64,000 nt of DNA from Escherichia coli (lineage in GTDB: Bacteria > Pseudomonadota > Gammaproteobacteria > Enterobacterales > Enterobacteriaceae). The stretch lies in assembly GCF_003334355.1 (NCBI RefSeq), contig NZ_QOWP01000003.1, one strand, 5' to 3'. This document shows positions 47,201-53,372 of this stretch, in pieces. The first letter of the stretch is position 1. Each line of letters opens with the position of its first letter. Position numbers and translations under genes: made by a program. The notes beneath the pieces were generated by a model that saw only the letters and a list, made by a program, of their open reading frames with translations, was not told where the DNA came from and ran no database searches.

Positions 47201-47653
47201 ATGCACGCAGATACCGCGACCCGCCAGCACTGGATGTCCGTGCTGGCGCACAGCCAACCGGCTGAACTGGCAGCACGCCTGAACGCGCTAAACATCACCG
47301 CCGACTATGAGGTGATCCGCGCCGCTGAAACTGGCCTGGTACAGATTCAGGCGCGGATGGGCGGCACCGGCGAACGTTTTTTTGCCGGCGACGCCACGCT
47401 GACCCGCGCCGCCGTGCGCCTGACTGACGGCACGCTCGGCTACAGCTGGGTGCTGGGGCGTGATAAACAGCACGCCGAACGCTGCGCGCTGATTGACGCG
47501 CTGATGCAGCAATCTCGCCACTTTCAAAACTTATCAGAAACCCTTATTGCCCCGCTGGACGCTGACCGTATGGCACGCATTGCCGCACGCCAGGCCGAAG
47601 TGAACGCCAGCCGGGTCGACTTCTTTACGATGGTTCGCGGAGACAACGCATGA
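47201..47653 (+). CDS. phnG: C-P lyase core complex subunit PhnG
   Basis: ORF track 150 aa; recognised as PhnG; start abuts phnF stop. Confidence 0.93.
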
Positions 47654-48234
47654 CCCTGGAAACCGCTTTTATGCTTCCCGTGCAGGATGCCCAGCACAGT
47701 TTTCGTCGCCTGTTAAAGGCCATGAGCGAGCCGGGCGTGATTGTCGCCCTGCATCAGCTCAAACGCGGCTGGCAACCGCTGAATATCGCCACCACCAGCG
47801 TGCTGCTGACGCTGGCCGATAACGACACGCCGGTGTGGCTTTCTACCCCATTAAATAACGATATCGTCAACCAGAGCCTGCGTTTTCATACCAACGCGCC
47901 GCTGGTCAGCCAGCCGGAACAGGCGACCTTCGCGGTGACGGATGAGGCGATTTCCAGCGAACAGCTCAACGCCCTTTCCACCGGCACCGCCGTTGCGCCG
48001 GAAGCGGGCGCGACGCTGATTTTACAGGTCGCCAGCCTGAGCGGCGGGCGCATGTTGCGTCTCACCGGCGCGGGTATTGCCGAAGAACGAATGATCGCTC
48101 CGCAGCTGCCGGAGTGCATTCTGCACGAACTCACCGAGCGCCCGCACCCGTTCCCGCTCGGCATCGACCTGATCCTGACCTGCGGCGAACGCCTGCTGGC
48201 TATTCCGCGAACCACGCATGTGGAGGTGTGCTGA
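47650..48234 (+). CDS. phnH: C-P lyase core complex subunit PhnH
   Basis: ORF track 194 aa; recognised as PhnH; ATGA overlap with phnG. Confidence 0.93.
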
Positions 48235-49298
48235 TGTACGTTGCCGTAAAAGGGGGCGAAAAGGCGATCAACGCCGCCCACGCCCTGCAAGAGAGCCGAC
48301 GCCGGGGCGATACCGATTTGCCTGAACTGAGCGTCGCCCAGATTGAACAGCAGCTTAACCTCGCGGTAGATCGCGTGATGACCGAAGGCGGCATTGCCGA
48401 CCGCGAACTGGCGGCGCTGGCGCTGAAACAGGCCAGCGGCGATAACGTTGAAGCGATTTTCCTGCTGCGCGCCTACCGCACCACGTTGGCGAAGCTGGCG
48501 GTAAGCGAGCCGCTCGACACCACCGGGATGCGTCTCGAACGCCGTATCTCCGCCGTTTATAAAGACATTCCCGGCGGCCAGCTGCTTGGCCCAACCTACG
48601 ACTACACCCATCGCCTGCTCGATTTTACCCTGCTGGCAAACGGCGAAGCGCCGACGCTGACCACCGCCGACAGCGAACAACAGCCGTCGCCGCACGTTTT
48701 CAGCCTGCTGGCGCGTCAGGGGCTGGCGAAGTTTGAAGAGGATAGCGGCGCACAGCCGGATGACATCACCCGCACGCCGCCGGTTTACCCCTGCTCACGT
48801 TCTTCCCGTTTGCAGCAGTTGATGCGCGGCGACGAAGGCTATTTGCTGGCGCTGGCCTACTCCACCCAGCGTGGTTACGGACGCAATCACCCGTTCGCGG
48901 GCGAGATCCGCAGTGGTTACATCGACGTGTCGATTGTGCCGGAAGAGCTGGGATTTGCGGTAAACGTCGGCGAACTACTGATGACCGAGTGTGAAATGGT
49001 CAACGGTTTTATCGACCCGCCGGATGAGCCGCCGCACTTCACGCGCGGCTACGGGCTGGTATTCGGCATGAGCGAGCGCAAAGCGATGGCAATGGCGCTG
49101 GTCGATCGTGCGTTGCAGGCTCCGGAATACGGCGAGCACGCGACAGGCCCGGCGCAGGATGAAGAGTTTGTGCTGGCACATGCCGACAACGTCGAAGCCG
49201 CAGGCTTTGTCTCGCACCTCAAACTCCCCCACTACGTCGATTTCCAGGCCGAACTGGAGCTACTCAAACGTCTGCAACAGGAGAAGAACCATGGCTAA
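48234..49298 (+). CDS. phnI: C-P lyase core complex subunit PhnI
   Basis: ORF track 48114..49298; recognised PhnI N-terminus [18 protein letters not shown] is codon 41 (ATG 48234, TGATG overlap with phnH stop); 354 aa. Confidence 0.93.
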   Translation: MYVAVKGGEKAINAAHALQESRRRGDTDLPELSVAQIEQQLNLAVDRVMTEGGIADRELAALALKQASGDNVEAIFLLRAYRTTLAKLAVSEPLDTTGMRLERRISAVYKDIPGGQLLGPTYDYTHRLLDFTLLANGEAPTLTTADSEQQPSPHVFSLLARQGLAKFEEDSGAQPDDITRTPPVYPCSRSSRLQQLMRGDEGYLLALAYSTQRGYGRNHPFAGEIRSGYIDVSIVPEELGFAVNVGELLMTECEMVNGFIDPPDEPPHFTRGYGLVFGMSERKAMAMALVDRALQAPEYGEHATGPAQDEEFVLAHADNVEAAGFVSHLKLPHYVDFQAELELLKRLQQEKNHG

Positions 49299-51001: not shown

Positions 51002-51682
51002 ATGATTAACGTACAAAACGTCAGTAAAACCTTCATCCTGCACCAGCAAAACGGCGTGCGCCTGCCCGTCCTCAATCGCGCCTCGCTCACCGTCAACGCG
51101 GGCGAATGCGTGGTGCTCCACGGCCATTCCGGCAGCGGCAAATCAACTCTGCTACGCTCGCTGTACGCCAACTATCTACCCGACGAAGGTCAAATCCAGA
51201 TCAAACACGGTGACGAGTGGGTAGACCTGGTCACCGCGCCAGCGCGCAAAGTGGTGGAAATCCGCAAAACCACCGTCGGCTGGGTGAGCCAGTTTCTGCG
51301 CGTCATCCCGCGTATCTCAGCACTGGAAGTGGTGATGCAGCCGCTGCTCGATACCGGCGTTCCGCGTGAAGCCTGCGCCGCTAAAGCCGCGCGTCTTCTC
51401 ACCCGCCTGAACGTGCCGGAACGCCTGTGGCACCTGGCACCATCGACATTTTCCGGTGGCGAACAGCAGCGCGTCAACATCGCCCGCGGCTTTATCGTCG
51501 ACTACCCCATTCTGCTGCTTGACGAACCTACCGCCTCGCTGGACGCCAAAAACAGCGCCGCGGTGGTGGAACTGATTCGCGAAGCCAAAACCCGTGGCGC
51601 AGCCATCGTAGGCATCTTCCATGACGAAGCTGTACGTAATGACGTCGCCGACCGCCTGCACCCAATGGGAGCCTCTTCATGA
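51002..51682 (+). CDS. phnL: C-P lyase accessory ATP-binding protein PhnL
   Basis: ORF track 50888..51682 starts inside the REP; recognised Phn[17 protein letters not shown] at ATG 51002; 226 aa; Walker [10 protein letters not shown]. Confidence 0.93.
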
Positions 51683-52815
51683 TTATCAATAACGTTAAGC
51701 TGGTGCTGGAAAACGAGGTGGTAAGCGGTTCGCTGGAGGTGCAGAACGGCGAAATCCGCGCCTTTGCCGAAAGCCAGAGCCGCCTGCCGGAGGCGATGGA
51801 CGGCGAAGGCGGCTGGCTGCTGCCGGGGCTGATTGAGCTGCATACCGATAATCTGGATAAATTCTTCACCCCGCGCCCGAAAGTTGACTGGCCTGCCCAC
51901 TCGGCGATGAGCAGCCACGACGCGCTGATGGTGGCGAGCGGCATCACCACCGTACTGGATGCCGTGGCAATTGGCGACGTGCGCGACGGCGGCGATCGGC
52001 TGGAGAATCTGGAGAAGATGATCAACGCCATCGAAGAGACGCAGAAACGCGGCGTCAACCGCGCCGAGCACCGTCTGCATCTGCGCTGCGAACTGCCGCA
52101 TCACACCACGCTGCCGCTGTTTGAAAAACTGGTGCAGCGCGAGCCGGTGACGCTGGTGTCGCTGATGGACCACTCGCCGGGCCAGCGCCAGTTCGCCAAC
52201 CGCGAGAAGTATCGCGAATATTATCAGGGCAAATACTCCCTCACTGATGCGCAGATGCAGCAGTACGAAGAAGAGCAACTGGCGCTCGCCGCACGCTGGT
52301 CGCAGCCGAATCGCGAATCCATCGCCGCCCTGTGCCGCGCGCGAAAAATTGCGCTTGCCAGCCACGATGACGCCACCCACGCCCACGTTGCTGAATCTCA
52401 CCAGCTTGGCAGCGTGATCGCCGAATTTCCCACCACGTTCGAAGCGGCGGAAGCCTCGCGCAAGCATGGCATGAACGTGCTGATGGGCGCGCCGAATATT
52501 GTGCGCGGCGGCTCGCACTCCGGCAACGTGGCGGCCAGTGAACTGGCGCAGCTTGGCCTGCTGGATATCCTCTCTTCCGACTACTACCCCGCCAGCCTGC
52601 TCGATGCGGCATTTCGCGTCGCCGATGACGAGAGCAACCGCTTTACGCTGCCGCAGGCGGTGAAGCTGGTGACTAAAAATCCAGCGCAGGCGCTTAATCT
52701 CCAGGATCGCGGGGTGATTGGCGAGGGCAAACGCGCCGACCTGGTGCTGGCGCATCGCAAGGACAATCATATTCATATCGACCACGTCTGGCGTCAGGGT
52801 AAAAGGGTGTTCTGA
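51679..52815 (+). CDS. phnM: PhnM, amidohydrolase-family subunit (RPnTP diphosphatase)
   Basis: ORF track 378 aa; metal-dependent hydrolase fold; ATGA overlap with phnL. Confidence 0.93.
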
Positions 52816-53372
52816 TGATGGGAAAACTGATTTGGTTAATGGGGCCGTCCGGCTCCGGGAAAGACAGCCTGCTGGCGGAACTCCGCCTGCGGGAACAAAC
52901 TCAGTTACTGGTGGCGCATCGCTACATCACGCGCGATGCCAGCGCCGGAAGTGAAAACCATATCGCCCTGAGCGAGCAGGAGTTTTTTACCCGCGCGGGG
53001 CAAAATCTGTTGGCCTTAAGCTGGCACGCTAACAGTCTGTATTATGGCGTCGGCGTCGAGATTGATCTCTGGCTGCACGCCGGATTCGACGTGCTGGTCA
53101 ACGGCTCACGCGCCCATCTGCCGCAGGCGCGGGCGCGCTATCAATCGGCGCTGCTGCCCGTCTGTTTACAGGTTTCGCCGGAGATCCTCCGCCAGCGCCT
53201 GGAAAACCGTGGCCGTGAAAACGCCAGTGAAATTAACGCCCGCCTGGCGCGCGCCGCCCGCTATACTCCACAGGATTGCCATACGCTCAACAATGACGGC
53301 AGCCTGCGCCAGTCGGTCGACACGCTGCTGACGCTGATCCATCAGAAGGAGAAACACCATGCCTGCTTGTGA
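52815..53372 (+). CDS. phnN: Ribose 1,5-bisphosphate phosphokinase PhnN
   Basis: ORF track 185 aa; P-loop GPSGSGKDS; start overlaps phnM stop (TGATG). Confidence 0.93.

Follow-up and report, generated by a model that had tools for sequence, protein, structure and literature searches.

The seven start/stop overlaps that join the genes phnG to phnO in the phosphonate (carbon–phosphorus, C-P, lyase) operon of Escherichia coli probably couple the translation of neighbouring genes, and they would do so in two blocks of an ordinary PhoB-driven operon. The operon, phnCDEFGHIJKLMNOP, lies on the + strand of the E. coli chromosome. We analysed it in a 64,000-nucleotide (nt) stretch of one assembly (GCF_003334355.1, contig NZ_QOWP01000003.1), hereafter the window, in which the overlapping region occupies positions 47650–53372. 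An earlier note on this DNA had described the overlaps and called them established biology. Rightly so, as both the operon and its gene boundaries are known; the observation is correct but ordinary, and would surprise no specialist. Its value lies mainly in annotation quality, with the overlapping ATGs confirmed as phn start codons.

Operon identity and junction geometry

Over window positions 43000–55000, the nearest complete genome, PSS-12 (NZ_AP027697.1), shows 5 single-nucleotide polymorphisms (SNPs) in 12 kb (99.96% identity). All complete E. coli genomes (5,426/5,426) match this region, with a query coverage of at least 80% in 5,385. The RefSeq annotation of PSS-12 lists yjdN followed by phnC–phnP, 14 co-directional + strand genes in the canonical order and at the same coordinates. 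PhnG, H, K, L, M, N, O and P exceed the curated cut-offs of their NCBIfam equivalog models. PhnI and PhnJ have no NCBIfam model: PhnI matches PF05861 (E = 4.9e-154), PhnJ matches PF06007 (E = 9.2e-151), and each is a full-length match to PDB chains of 4XB6 and 7Z15–7Z19. Compared with the E. coli phnCDEFGHIJKLMNOP operon of RefSeq and of the Phn(GHIJ)2K and Phn(GHIJKL)2 structures (4XB6, 7Z15–7Z19; PMC9947105), this is the same locus, identical in gene order, protein sequences, coding sequence (CDS) coordinates and every junction spacing; there is no difference of substance, the nearest complete genome being 5 SNPs away. The PhoB site and the genes under study are as follows (aa, amino acids).

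43679–43696, + strand: pho box (PhoB site) upstream of phnC, an exact match to the site published in PMC10294691
47201–47653, + strand: phnG, 150 aa, RefSeq CDS; TIGR03293 equivalog, 179.6 bits (cut-off 89)
47650–48234, + strand: phnH, 194 aa, RefSeq CDS; TIGR03292, 205 bits
48234–49298, + strand: phnI, 354 aa, RefSeq CDS; PF05861; PDB 4xb6_C, 7z15_C
49291–50136, + strand: phnJ, 281 aa, RefSeq CDS; PF06007; PDB 4xb6_D
50133–50891, + strand: phnK, 252 aa, RefSeq CDS; TIGR02323, 412 bits
51002–51682, + strand: phnL, 226 aa, RefSeq CDS; TIGR02324 aligns to 1–218
51679–52815, + strand: phnM, 378 aa, RefSeq CDS; NF011981 aligns to 1–378 of 378
52815–53372, + strand: phnN, 185 aa, RefSeq CDS; NF007485, 357 bits
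53359–53793, + strand: phnO, 144 aa, RefSeq CDS; NF007530 aligns to 1–144 of 144

The published PhoB site sequence has a single match in the window, at 43679–43696, and none in shuffled sequences; it marks the only promoter of the polycistronic mRNA. Expression of phn is PhoB-dependent (PMC10294691), and RNA-seq under phosphate starvation shows the 14 phn genes as one highly expressed transcript (PMC3734233). Promoter-like and terminator-like motifs inside the operon, as found by consensus scans, did not rise above shuffle expectation, and none was found between phnK and phnL; internal promoters or terminators at the junctions were rejected because the scans stayed at shuffle level. The locus is an ordinary E. 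coli C-P lyase operon, transcribed as a single PhoB-dependent mRNA under phosphate starvation.

The junctions were read base by base, with stops and starts marked by a script. In the list below, a negative spacing is an overlap in nt, and dG is the Shine–Dalgarno pairing energy in kcal/mol.

47650–47653, + strand: phnG/H, ATGA, −4; TGA 47651–47653, ATG 47650–47652; GGAG Shine–Dalgarno sequence inside phnG, dG −6.6
48232–48236, + strand: phnH/I, TGATG, −1; TGA 48232–48234, ATG 48234–48236; Shine–Dalgarno sequence GGAGG at 48222–48226, 7 nt before the ATG, dG −10.6
49291–49298, + strand: phnI/J, ATGGCTAA, −8; TAA 49296–49298, ATG 49291–49293; AGGAG, dG −7.4
50133–50136, + strand: phnJ/K, ATGA, −4; TGA 50134–50136, ATG 50133–50135; Shine–Dalgarno dG −8.2
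50892–51001, + strand: phnK–phnL spacer, 110 nt, with two inverted repetitive extragenic palindromic (REP) units; the sole break in the overlap chain
51679–51682, + strand: phnL/M, ATGA, −4; TGA 51680–51682, ATG 51679–51681; Shine–Dalgarno dG −6.5
52813–52817, + strand: phnM/N, TGATG, −1; TGA 52813–52815, ATG 52815–52817; second ATG at 52818
53359–53372, + strand: phnN/O, −14; TGA 53370–53372, ATG 53359–53361; AAGGAG, dG −8.8

At the edges of this region, the phnF stop and phnG start adjoin (gap 0), and phnO and phnP are 1 nt apart, with phnP starting at 53795. All seven overlaps are RefSeq CDS boundaries, and the earlier description of them proved exact to the base: ATGA at G/H, J/K and L/M, TGATG at H/I and M/N, 8 nt at I/J and 14 nt at N/O. 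Its wording that the overlaps extend across phnG–phnO holds for these seven junctions but not for phnK/L, which it omitted. There, 110 nt separate the phnK stop (50889–50891) from the phnL ATG (51002), with no overlap. Owing to this gap, the operon consists of two tightly packed blocks, F–K and L–P, and not of a continuous chain.

Within phnG–phnO, 7 of 8 junctions overlap, against 6 of the 39 other same-strand pairs in the window (Fisher p = 1.9e-4). Genome-wide, 707 of 2,987 E. coli same-strand pairs (24%) are spaced at −8 to +6 nt (PMC10666635); from phnF to phnP the figure is 8 of 10 junctions (binomial P = 2.8e-4 against the 24% rate). The clustering of overlaps is real, though unremarkable for a long operon. 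Compact layouts of this kind are usual where gene products are made in fixed proportions.

Start codon assignment

The maximal open reading frames (ORFs) exceed the annotated genes, at 394 aa for phnI, 342 for phnJ, 262 for phnK and 264 for phnL. If translation truly began at the upstream codons GTG 48114 (phnI), GTG 49108 (phnJ), TTG 50103 (phnK) and TTG 50888 (phnL), the short overlaps would be annotation artefacts and the real ones would measure tens to hundreds of nt. Those codons are indeed in frame, without a stop in between. However, Shine–Dalgarno pairing is absent there, with dG of +0.3 to −2.6 kcal/mol, compared with −5.5 to −10.6 kcal/mol at the annotated starts, which have the best pairing among the in-frame candidates. 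For phnO, ATG 53359 is the only in-frame start candidate.

The protein evidence points the same way. NCBIfam equivalog profiles begin at residues 1–7 of the short forms, and the N-terminal extensions fall outside both the Pfam and the NCBIfam profiles. In the 394-aa maximal ORF of phnI, position 1 of PF05861 aligns to residue 41, the annotated Met. In the 342-aa maximal ORF of phnJ, the annotated Met is residue 62, and PF06007 sets in 5 residues later, at residue 67. PDB chain lengths are those of the short forms (PhnI, 354 aa in 4xb6_C and 7z15_C; PhnJ, 281 aa in 4xb6_D). We also compared N-termini with orthologues from Sinorhizobium, Variovorax, Paracoccus, Mesobacillus, Thermus and the haloarchaeon Natribaculum. 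Across the seven taxa, which span 5 phyla, the conserved N-terminal motifs set in at residues 1–8: the PhnI N-terminus MYVAVKGGE is conserved in all 7, the orthologues reading M(G)YVAVKGGE, and the PhnJ orthologues have a short leader followed by YNFAYLDE. The phnL extension would, in addition, require read-through of the REP hairpin in the phnK–phnL spacer. By Shine–Dalgarno strength, profile coverage, orthologue N-termini and PDB chain lengths, we ruled out the maximal ORFs as the true genes, and we regard initiation at the upstream codons as highly improbable.

Two closer candidates were also considered. GTG 48228 was rejected: it has a Shine–Dalgarno pairing nearly as strong as that of the annotated phnI start (−9.9 against −10.6), yet lies only 1 nt past GGAGG, and its use would add residues absent from every orthologue. 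The phnN gene opens with ATGATG in the window, and position 1 of NF007485 aligns to residue 2, which would suit a start at ATG 52818. In a sequence type 131 (ST131) strain, however, the opening reads ATGACG, leaving only the overlapping ATG 52815 usable there, and 52815 is favoured. The earlier claim that the overlaps pin down the starts better than the ORF maxima was borne out, since RefSeq starts, profiles, PDB lengths, orthologue N-termini and Shine–Dalgarno sites agree. The overlapping ATGs, rather than the starts of the longest ORFs, are thus supported as the phn start codons.

Evidence for and against translational coupling

An overlap of stop and start codons is a textbook sign of translational coupling. 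Coupling presupposes a shared transcript, and the 14 genes form one, driven by PhoB. The features that can be checked here agree with the earlier statement that the overlaps are consistent with coupling: a single transcript, spacings of −8 to +1 at most junctions, and Shine–Dalgarno sequences inside the upstream gene. Each overlapping start is preceded, at no more than 20 nt, by Shine–Dalgarno pairing that falls within the coding sequence of the gene before it. The best spacings for coupling lie between −4 and +3 nt, with −4 and −1 the most efficient, and longer overlaps reduce it (PMC10666635, PMC12548453). The range of about −4 to +3, or more broadly −8 to +6, takes in F/G, G/H, H/I, I/J, J/K, L/M, M/N and O/P, and leaves out N/O (−14) and K/L (+110).

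Two models of coupling have been described: in one, the upstream ribosome unfolds the RNA, and in the other that ribosome itself reinitiates (PMC12548453). Where a stop codon overlaps, adjoins or lies 1 nt from the next start, a ribosome finishing one gene would end on the ribosome-binding site of the next. By the first route, this upstream ribosome would melt mRNA structure around the Shine–Dalgarno sequence and AUG; by the second, the ribosome, or its 30S subunit, would reinitiate without leaving the mRNA. The outcome would be that PhnG, H, I and J, together with PhnK, are made in rough proportion to one another, feeding the assembly of Phn(GHIJ)2 with K and L. Coordinated synthesis would reach the pathway enzymes PhnM, N and O as well.

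In reporter experiments, widening the gap of native E. coli −1 pairs to 38 nt abolished 80–100% of downstream translation, and all native overlapping E. coli pairs so far tested in this way are coupled (PMC10666635). These include hyfH-hyfI, ydbH-ynbE and menD-menH, which resemble the phn junctions in being co-directional, overlapping by −1 or −4 and carrying the Shine–Dalgarno sequence in the upstream gene; as in phn, some of these pairs encode complex subunits and others pathway enzymes. The coupling of those pairs was established by experiment, that of the phn junctions is predicted, and phn includes two longer overlaps (−8 and −14), a length suggested to be less efficient.

Several points weigh against coupling. 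When phnG–phnO is compared with tightly spaced pairs only (gap ≤60 nt, of which 6 of 17 overlap), the enrichment of overlaps is modest (p = 0.02). Every downstream gene has its own Shine–Dalgarno sequence, and for most ribosome-binding sites an unusually open structure is predicted: opening energies are 5–9 kcal/mol at phnG, J, K, L and M and 6–11 kcal/mol at phnJ, K, M, N and O, against 14.1 ± 4.1 at random coding positions. Independent initiation could therefore explain much of the expression. Ribosome profiling under depletion of the ribosome recycling factor (RRF) speaks against reinitiation as an important route of coupling in E. coli (PMC7538156). Coupling also becomes less efficient once an overlap exceeds 4 nt (PMC12548453), so that I/J (−8) and, above all, N/O (−14) are weaker cases. 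The overlaps also join PhnM, N and O, which are not described as members of the complex. Our search of the open-access literature found no paper that tests coupling or maps initiation sites in phn.

Much of this would also suit an explanation in which the overlaps are a by-product of genome compaction, each gene being initiated independently at its own Shine–Dalgarno sequence and ATGA or TGATG simply being the easiest spacer-free packing. Such an explanation gains from the Shine–Dalgarno sequences at all starts and the open binding sites, from the links that M/N and N/O make between proteins outside the complex, from the finding that coupling is unchanged genome-wide upon RRF depletion (PMC7538156), and from −4 and −1 being the commonest spacings across prokaryotes (PMC10666635). 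Against it stand the coupling of all tested native overlapping pairs mentioned above and the predicted opening energies at phnH (13.8 kcal/mol) and phnI (14.5 kcal/mol), which are at background level, so that for these two binding sites the prediction shows no gain in accessibility over random coding sequence.

The conservation of spacing also argues against compaction. We compared E. coli with six annotated phn operons, giving 7 taxa of 5 phyla, including one archaeon, with very different GC content. The S. meliloti phnH is absent from the gene table, and its two spacings were taken from the ORF. The spacings (nt) in the six other operons are as follows.

Variovorax: G/H −4, H/I +1, I/J −4, J/K −4, K/L −4, L/next −4
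Paracoccus: G/H −4, H/I −1, I/J −4, J/K −4, K/L +4, L/next −4
Mesobacillus: G/H +14, H/I −1, I/J −1, J/K −1, K/M +36, M/L +26
Thermus: G/H −4, H/I −13, I/J −20, J/K −8, K/L +11, L/next −35
Natribaculum: G/H −4, H/I 0, I/J −8, J/K −4, K/L 0, L/next −4
S. meliloti: G/H −1 and H/I −10 (both from the ORF reading), I/J −4, J/K −4, K/L +33, L/next −4

I/J and J/K overlap in all seven taxa and G/H in 6/7, the ORF-read phnH of S. meliloti included. K/L is the junction most often open among them, usually with a small positive gap. From Proteobacteria to haloarchaea, the genes G-H-I-J-K remain tightly spaced. Within E. coli, the ST131 strain carries 411 substitutions (6.1%) and no insertions or deletions, and every junction spacing is kept. 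The 26-nt windows at the nine tight junctions hold 8 of these substitutions against 14.4 expected (p = 0.047). In strain RUT3575, the K/L spacer is 176 nt long and consists of an unrelated GC-rich palindromic element, with the other junctions unchanged. The junction spacing is thus fixed at 6% divergence, whereas the K/L spacer varies freely in length and content. Taken together, we consider compaction with independent initiation unlikely.

The phn genes as a whole (47150–53850) are unusually divergent among E. coli strains, with identity down to 93.9%; divergence from ST131 is 5–7% per phn gene and mostly synonymous. PhnO stands apart: the protein is identical (same WP accession) in 4/4 strains examined, and the gene differs from that of ST131 at only 3.2% of nucleotides.

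Returning to coupling as the preferred reading, the overlaps, the start codons, a Shine–Dalgarno sequence at every start and the conserved spacing are observed; the dependence of downstream on upstream translation, and the mechanism behind it, are inferred. Judged by the modelled opening energies, coupling, by unfolding, would matter most for G→H and H→I. It would matter least for I→J (−8) and N→O (−14), which could largely initiate alone because of their longer overlaps, their strongest canonical Shine–Dalgarno sites and their open ribosome-binding sites.

The earlier note had also called the overlaps typical of a multi-subunit complex. In the Phn(GHIJKL)2 complex, PhnK and PhnL are bound as a double dimer to a core of PhnG, H, I and J (PMC9947105); overlaps are enriched in heteromeric complexes (PMC10666635). 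The G–K overlaps fit this, and the argument reaches only from G to L. L/M, M/N and N/O, however, lead from a subunit to a hydrolase, a kinase and an acetyltransferase, PhnM, N and O being described as separate pathway enzymes (PMC9947105, PMC3734233), and K/L is open even though both products are subunits. As M, N and O are also overlapped, stoichiometric assembly cannot be the only reason for the layout. Complex stoichiometry is a partial explanation, and coordinated pathway expression and simple compaction also fit.

A further possibility is that the overlaps serve programmed frameshifting or the production of fusion proteins, such as G-H or H-I. All that speaks for it is that neighbours differ in frame at each junction. 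In the complex structures, PhnG, H, I, J, K and L are each present as a full-length chain of their own (PMC9947105; PDB), and no slippery heptamer or stimulatory structure was noticed while reading the junctions, though no systematic scan was made. We give this possibility almost no credence.

As a separate observation on the subunits, a weak Pfam PhnG-family match lies inside PhnI (48951–49139, residues ~240–302; E = 0.0012, 19.4 bits), which may hint that PhnG and PhnI are distantly related.

The phnK–phnL spacer and neighbouring features

The phnK–phnL spacer folds with a minimum free energy of −61.8 kcal/mol (z = −6.3). The outer stem of the hairpin begins 4 nt past the phnK stop and the REP unit 7 nt past it, and no T-run follows. 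The spacer diverges from ST131 by 1.8%, its flanking genes by 5–7%. One arm of the hairpin is identical to a REP copy at 43019–43052 on the − strand, between yjdM and yjdN. A repeat search of the K/L and D/E spacers returned no inverted repeats, the arms' exact runs being shorter than 9 nt; the hairpins were found by folding.

Hand-over of ribosomes across this 110-nt structured spacer is not expected. Given the gap and a hairpin of about −62 kcal/mol, phnL is predicted to be initiated de novo at its own ribosome-binding site. It has its own Shine–Dalgarno sequence, and the site is predicted to be accessible, with an opening energy of 6.5 kcal/mol (3rd percentile).

It is conceivable, if rather doubtful, that the REP hairpin has a role of its own, splitting the two coupled blocks F–K and L–P and setting the ratio of the core subunits to PhnK, PhnL and the downstream enzymes. 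It might do so by blocking hand-over, by stabilising the upstream mRNA or by interfering with phnK termination. If true, the swap of the spacer for another palindromic element would make the PhnK:PhnL ratio variable between strains.

The REP element between malE and malF, a bacterial interspersed mosaic element (BIME), is a known example inside an operon. Like malE-REP-malF, the phn operon has a stable palindromic REP pair in intra-operon spacers, K/L and D/E. The phnD-phnE spacer (45570–45674, 105 nt) holds a similar REP-pair hairpin (−50.5 kcal/mol) directly after the gene for the periplasmic binding protein, a placement reminiscent of malE-REP-malF. The K/L element marks a break in the chain of probably coupled genes.

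For re-cloning of C-P lyase, constructs that separate or tag genes where they overlap may upset expression of the gene that follows. Only at the K/L spacer is the chain naturally interrupted. The complex has been expressed from plasmids carrying the natively arranged fragments phnGHIJK and phnLMNOP, and a published double-Strep tag sits at the PhnK C-terminus, bordering this spacer (PMC9947105).

A few observations concern the flanks. In the window, phnE (45675–46454) is annotated as an intact gene for a 259-aa permease; in E. coli K-12, phnE is a cryptic allele bearing an 8-bp duplication. Further upstream, yjdN (phnB; 43164–43607) is an intact ORF of 147 aa in the window, while RefSeq flags it as a pseudogene with an internal stop in PSS-12, caused by a SNP at 43468 relative to the window, which hence derives from a strain other than PSS-12. 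Strain 17MR471 has 98 additional bp ahead of yjdN, very probably within the yjdM-yjdN intergenic region. Collinearity of the window with PSS-12 ends at about 62239, short of the remaining stretch to 64000, and an IS1 transposase is annotated just past that point in PSS-12.

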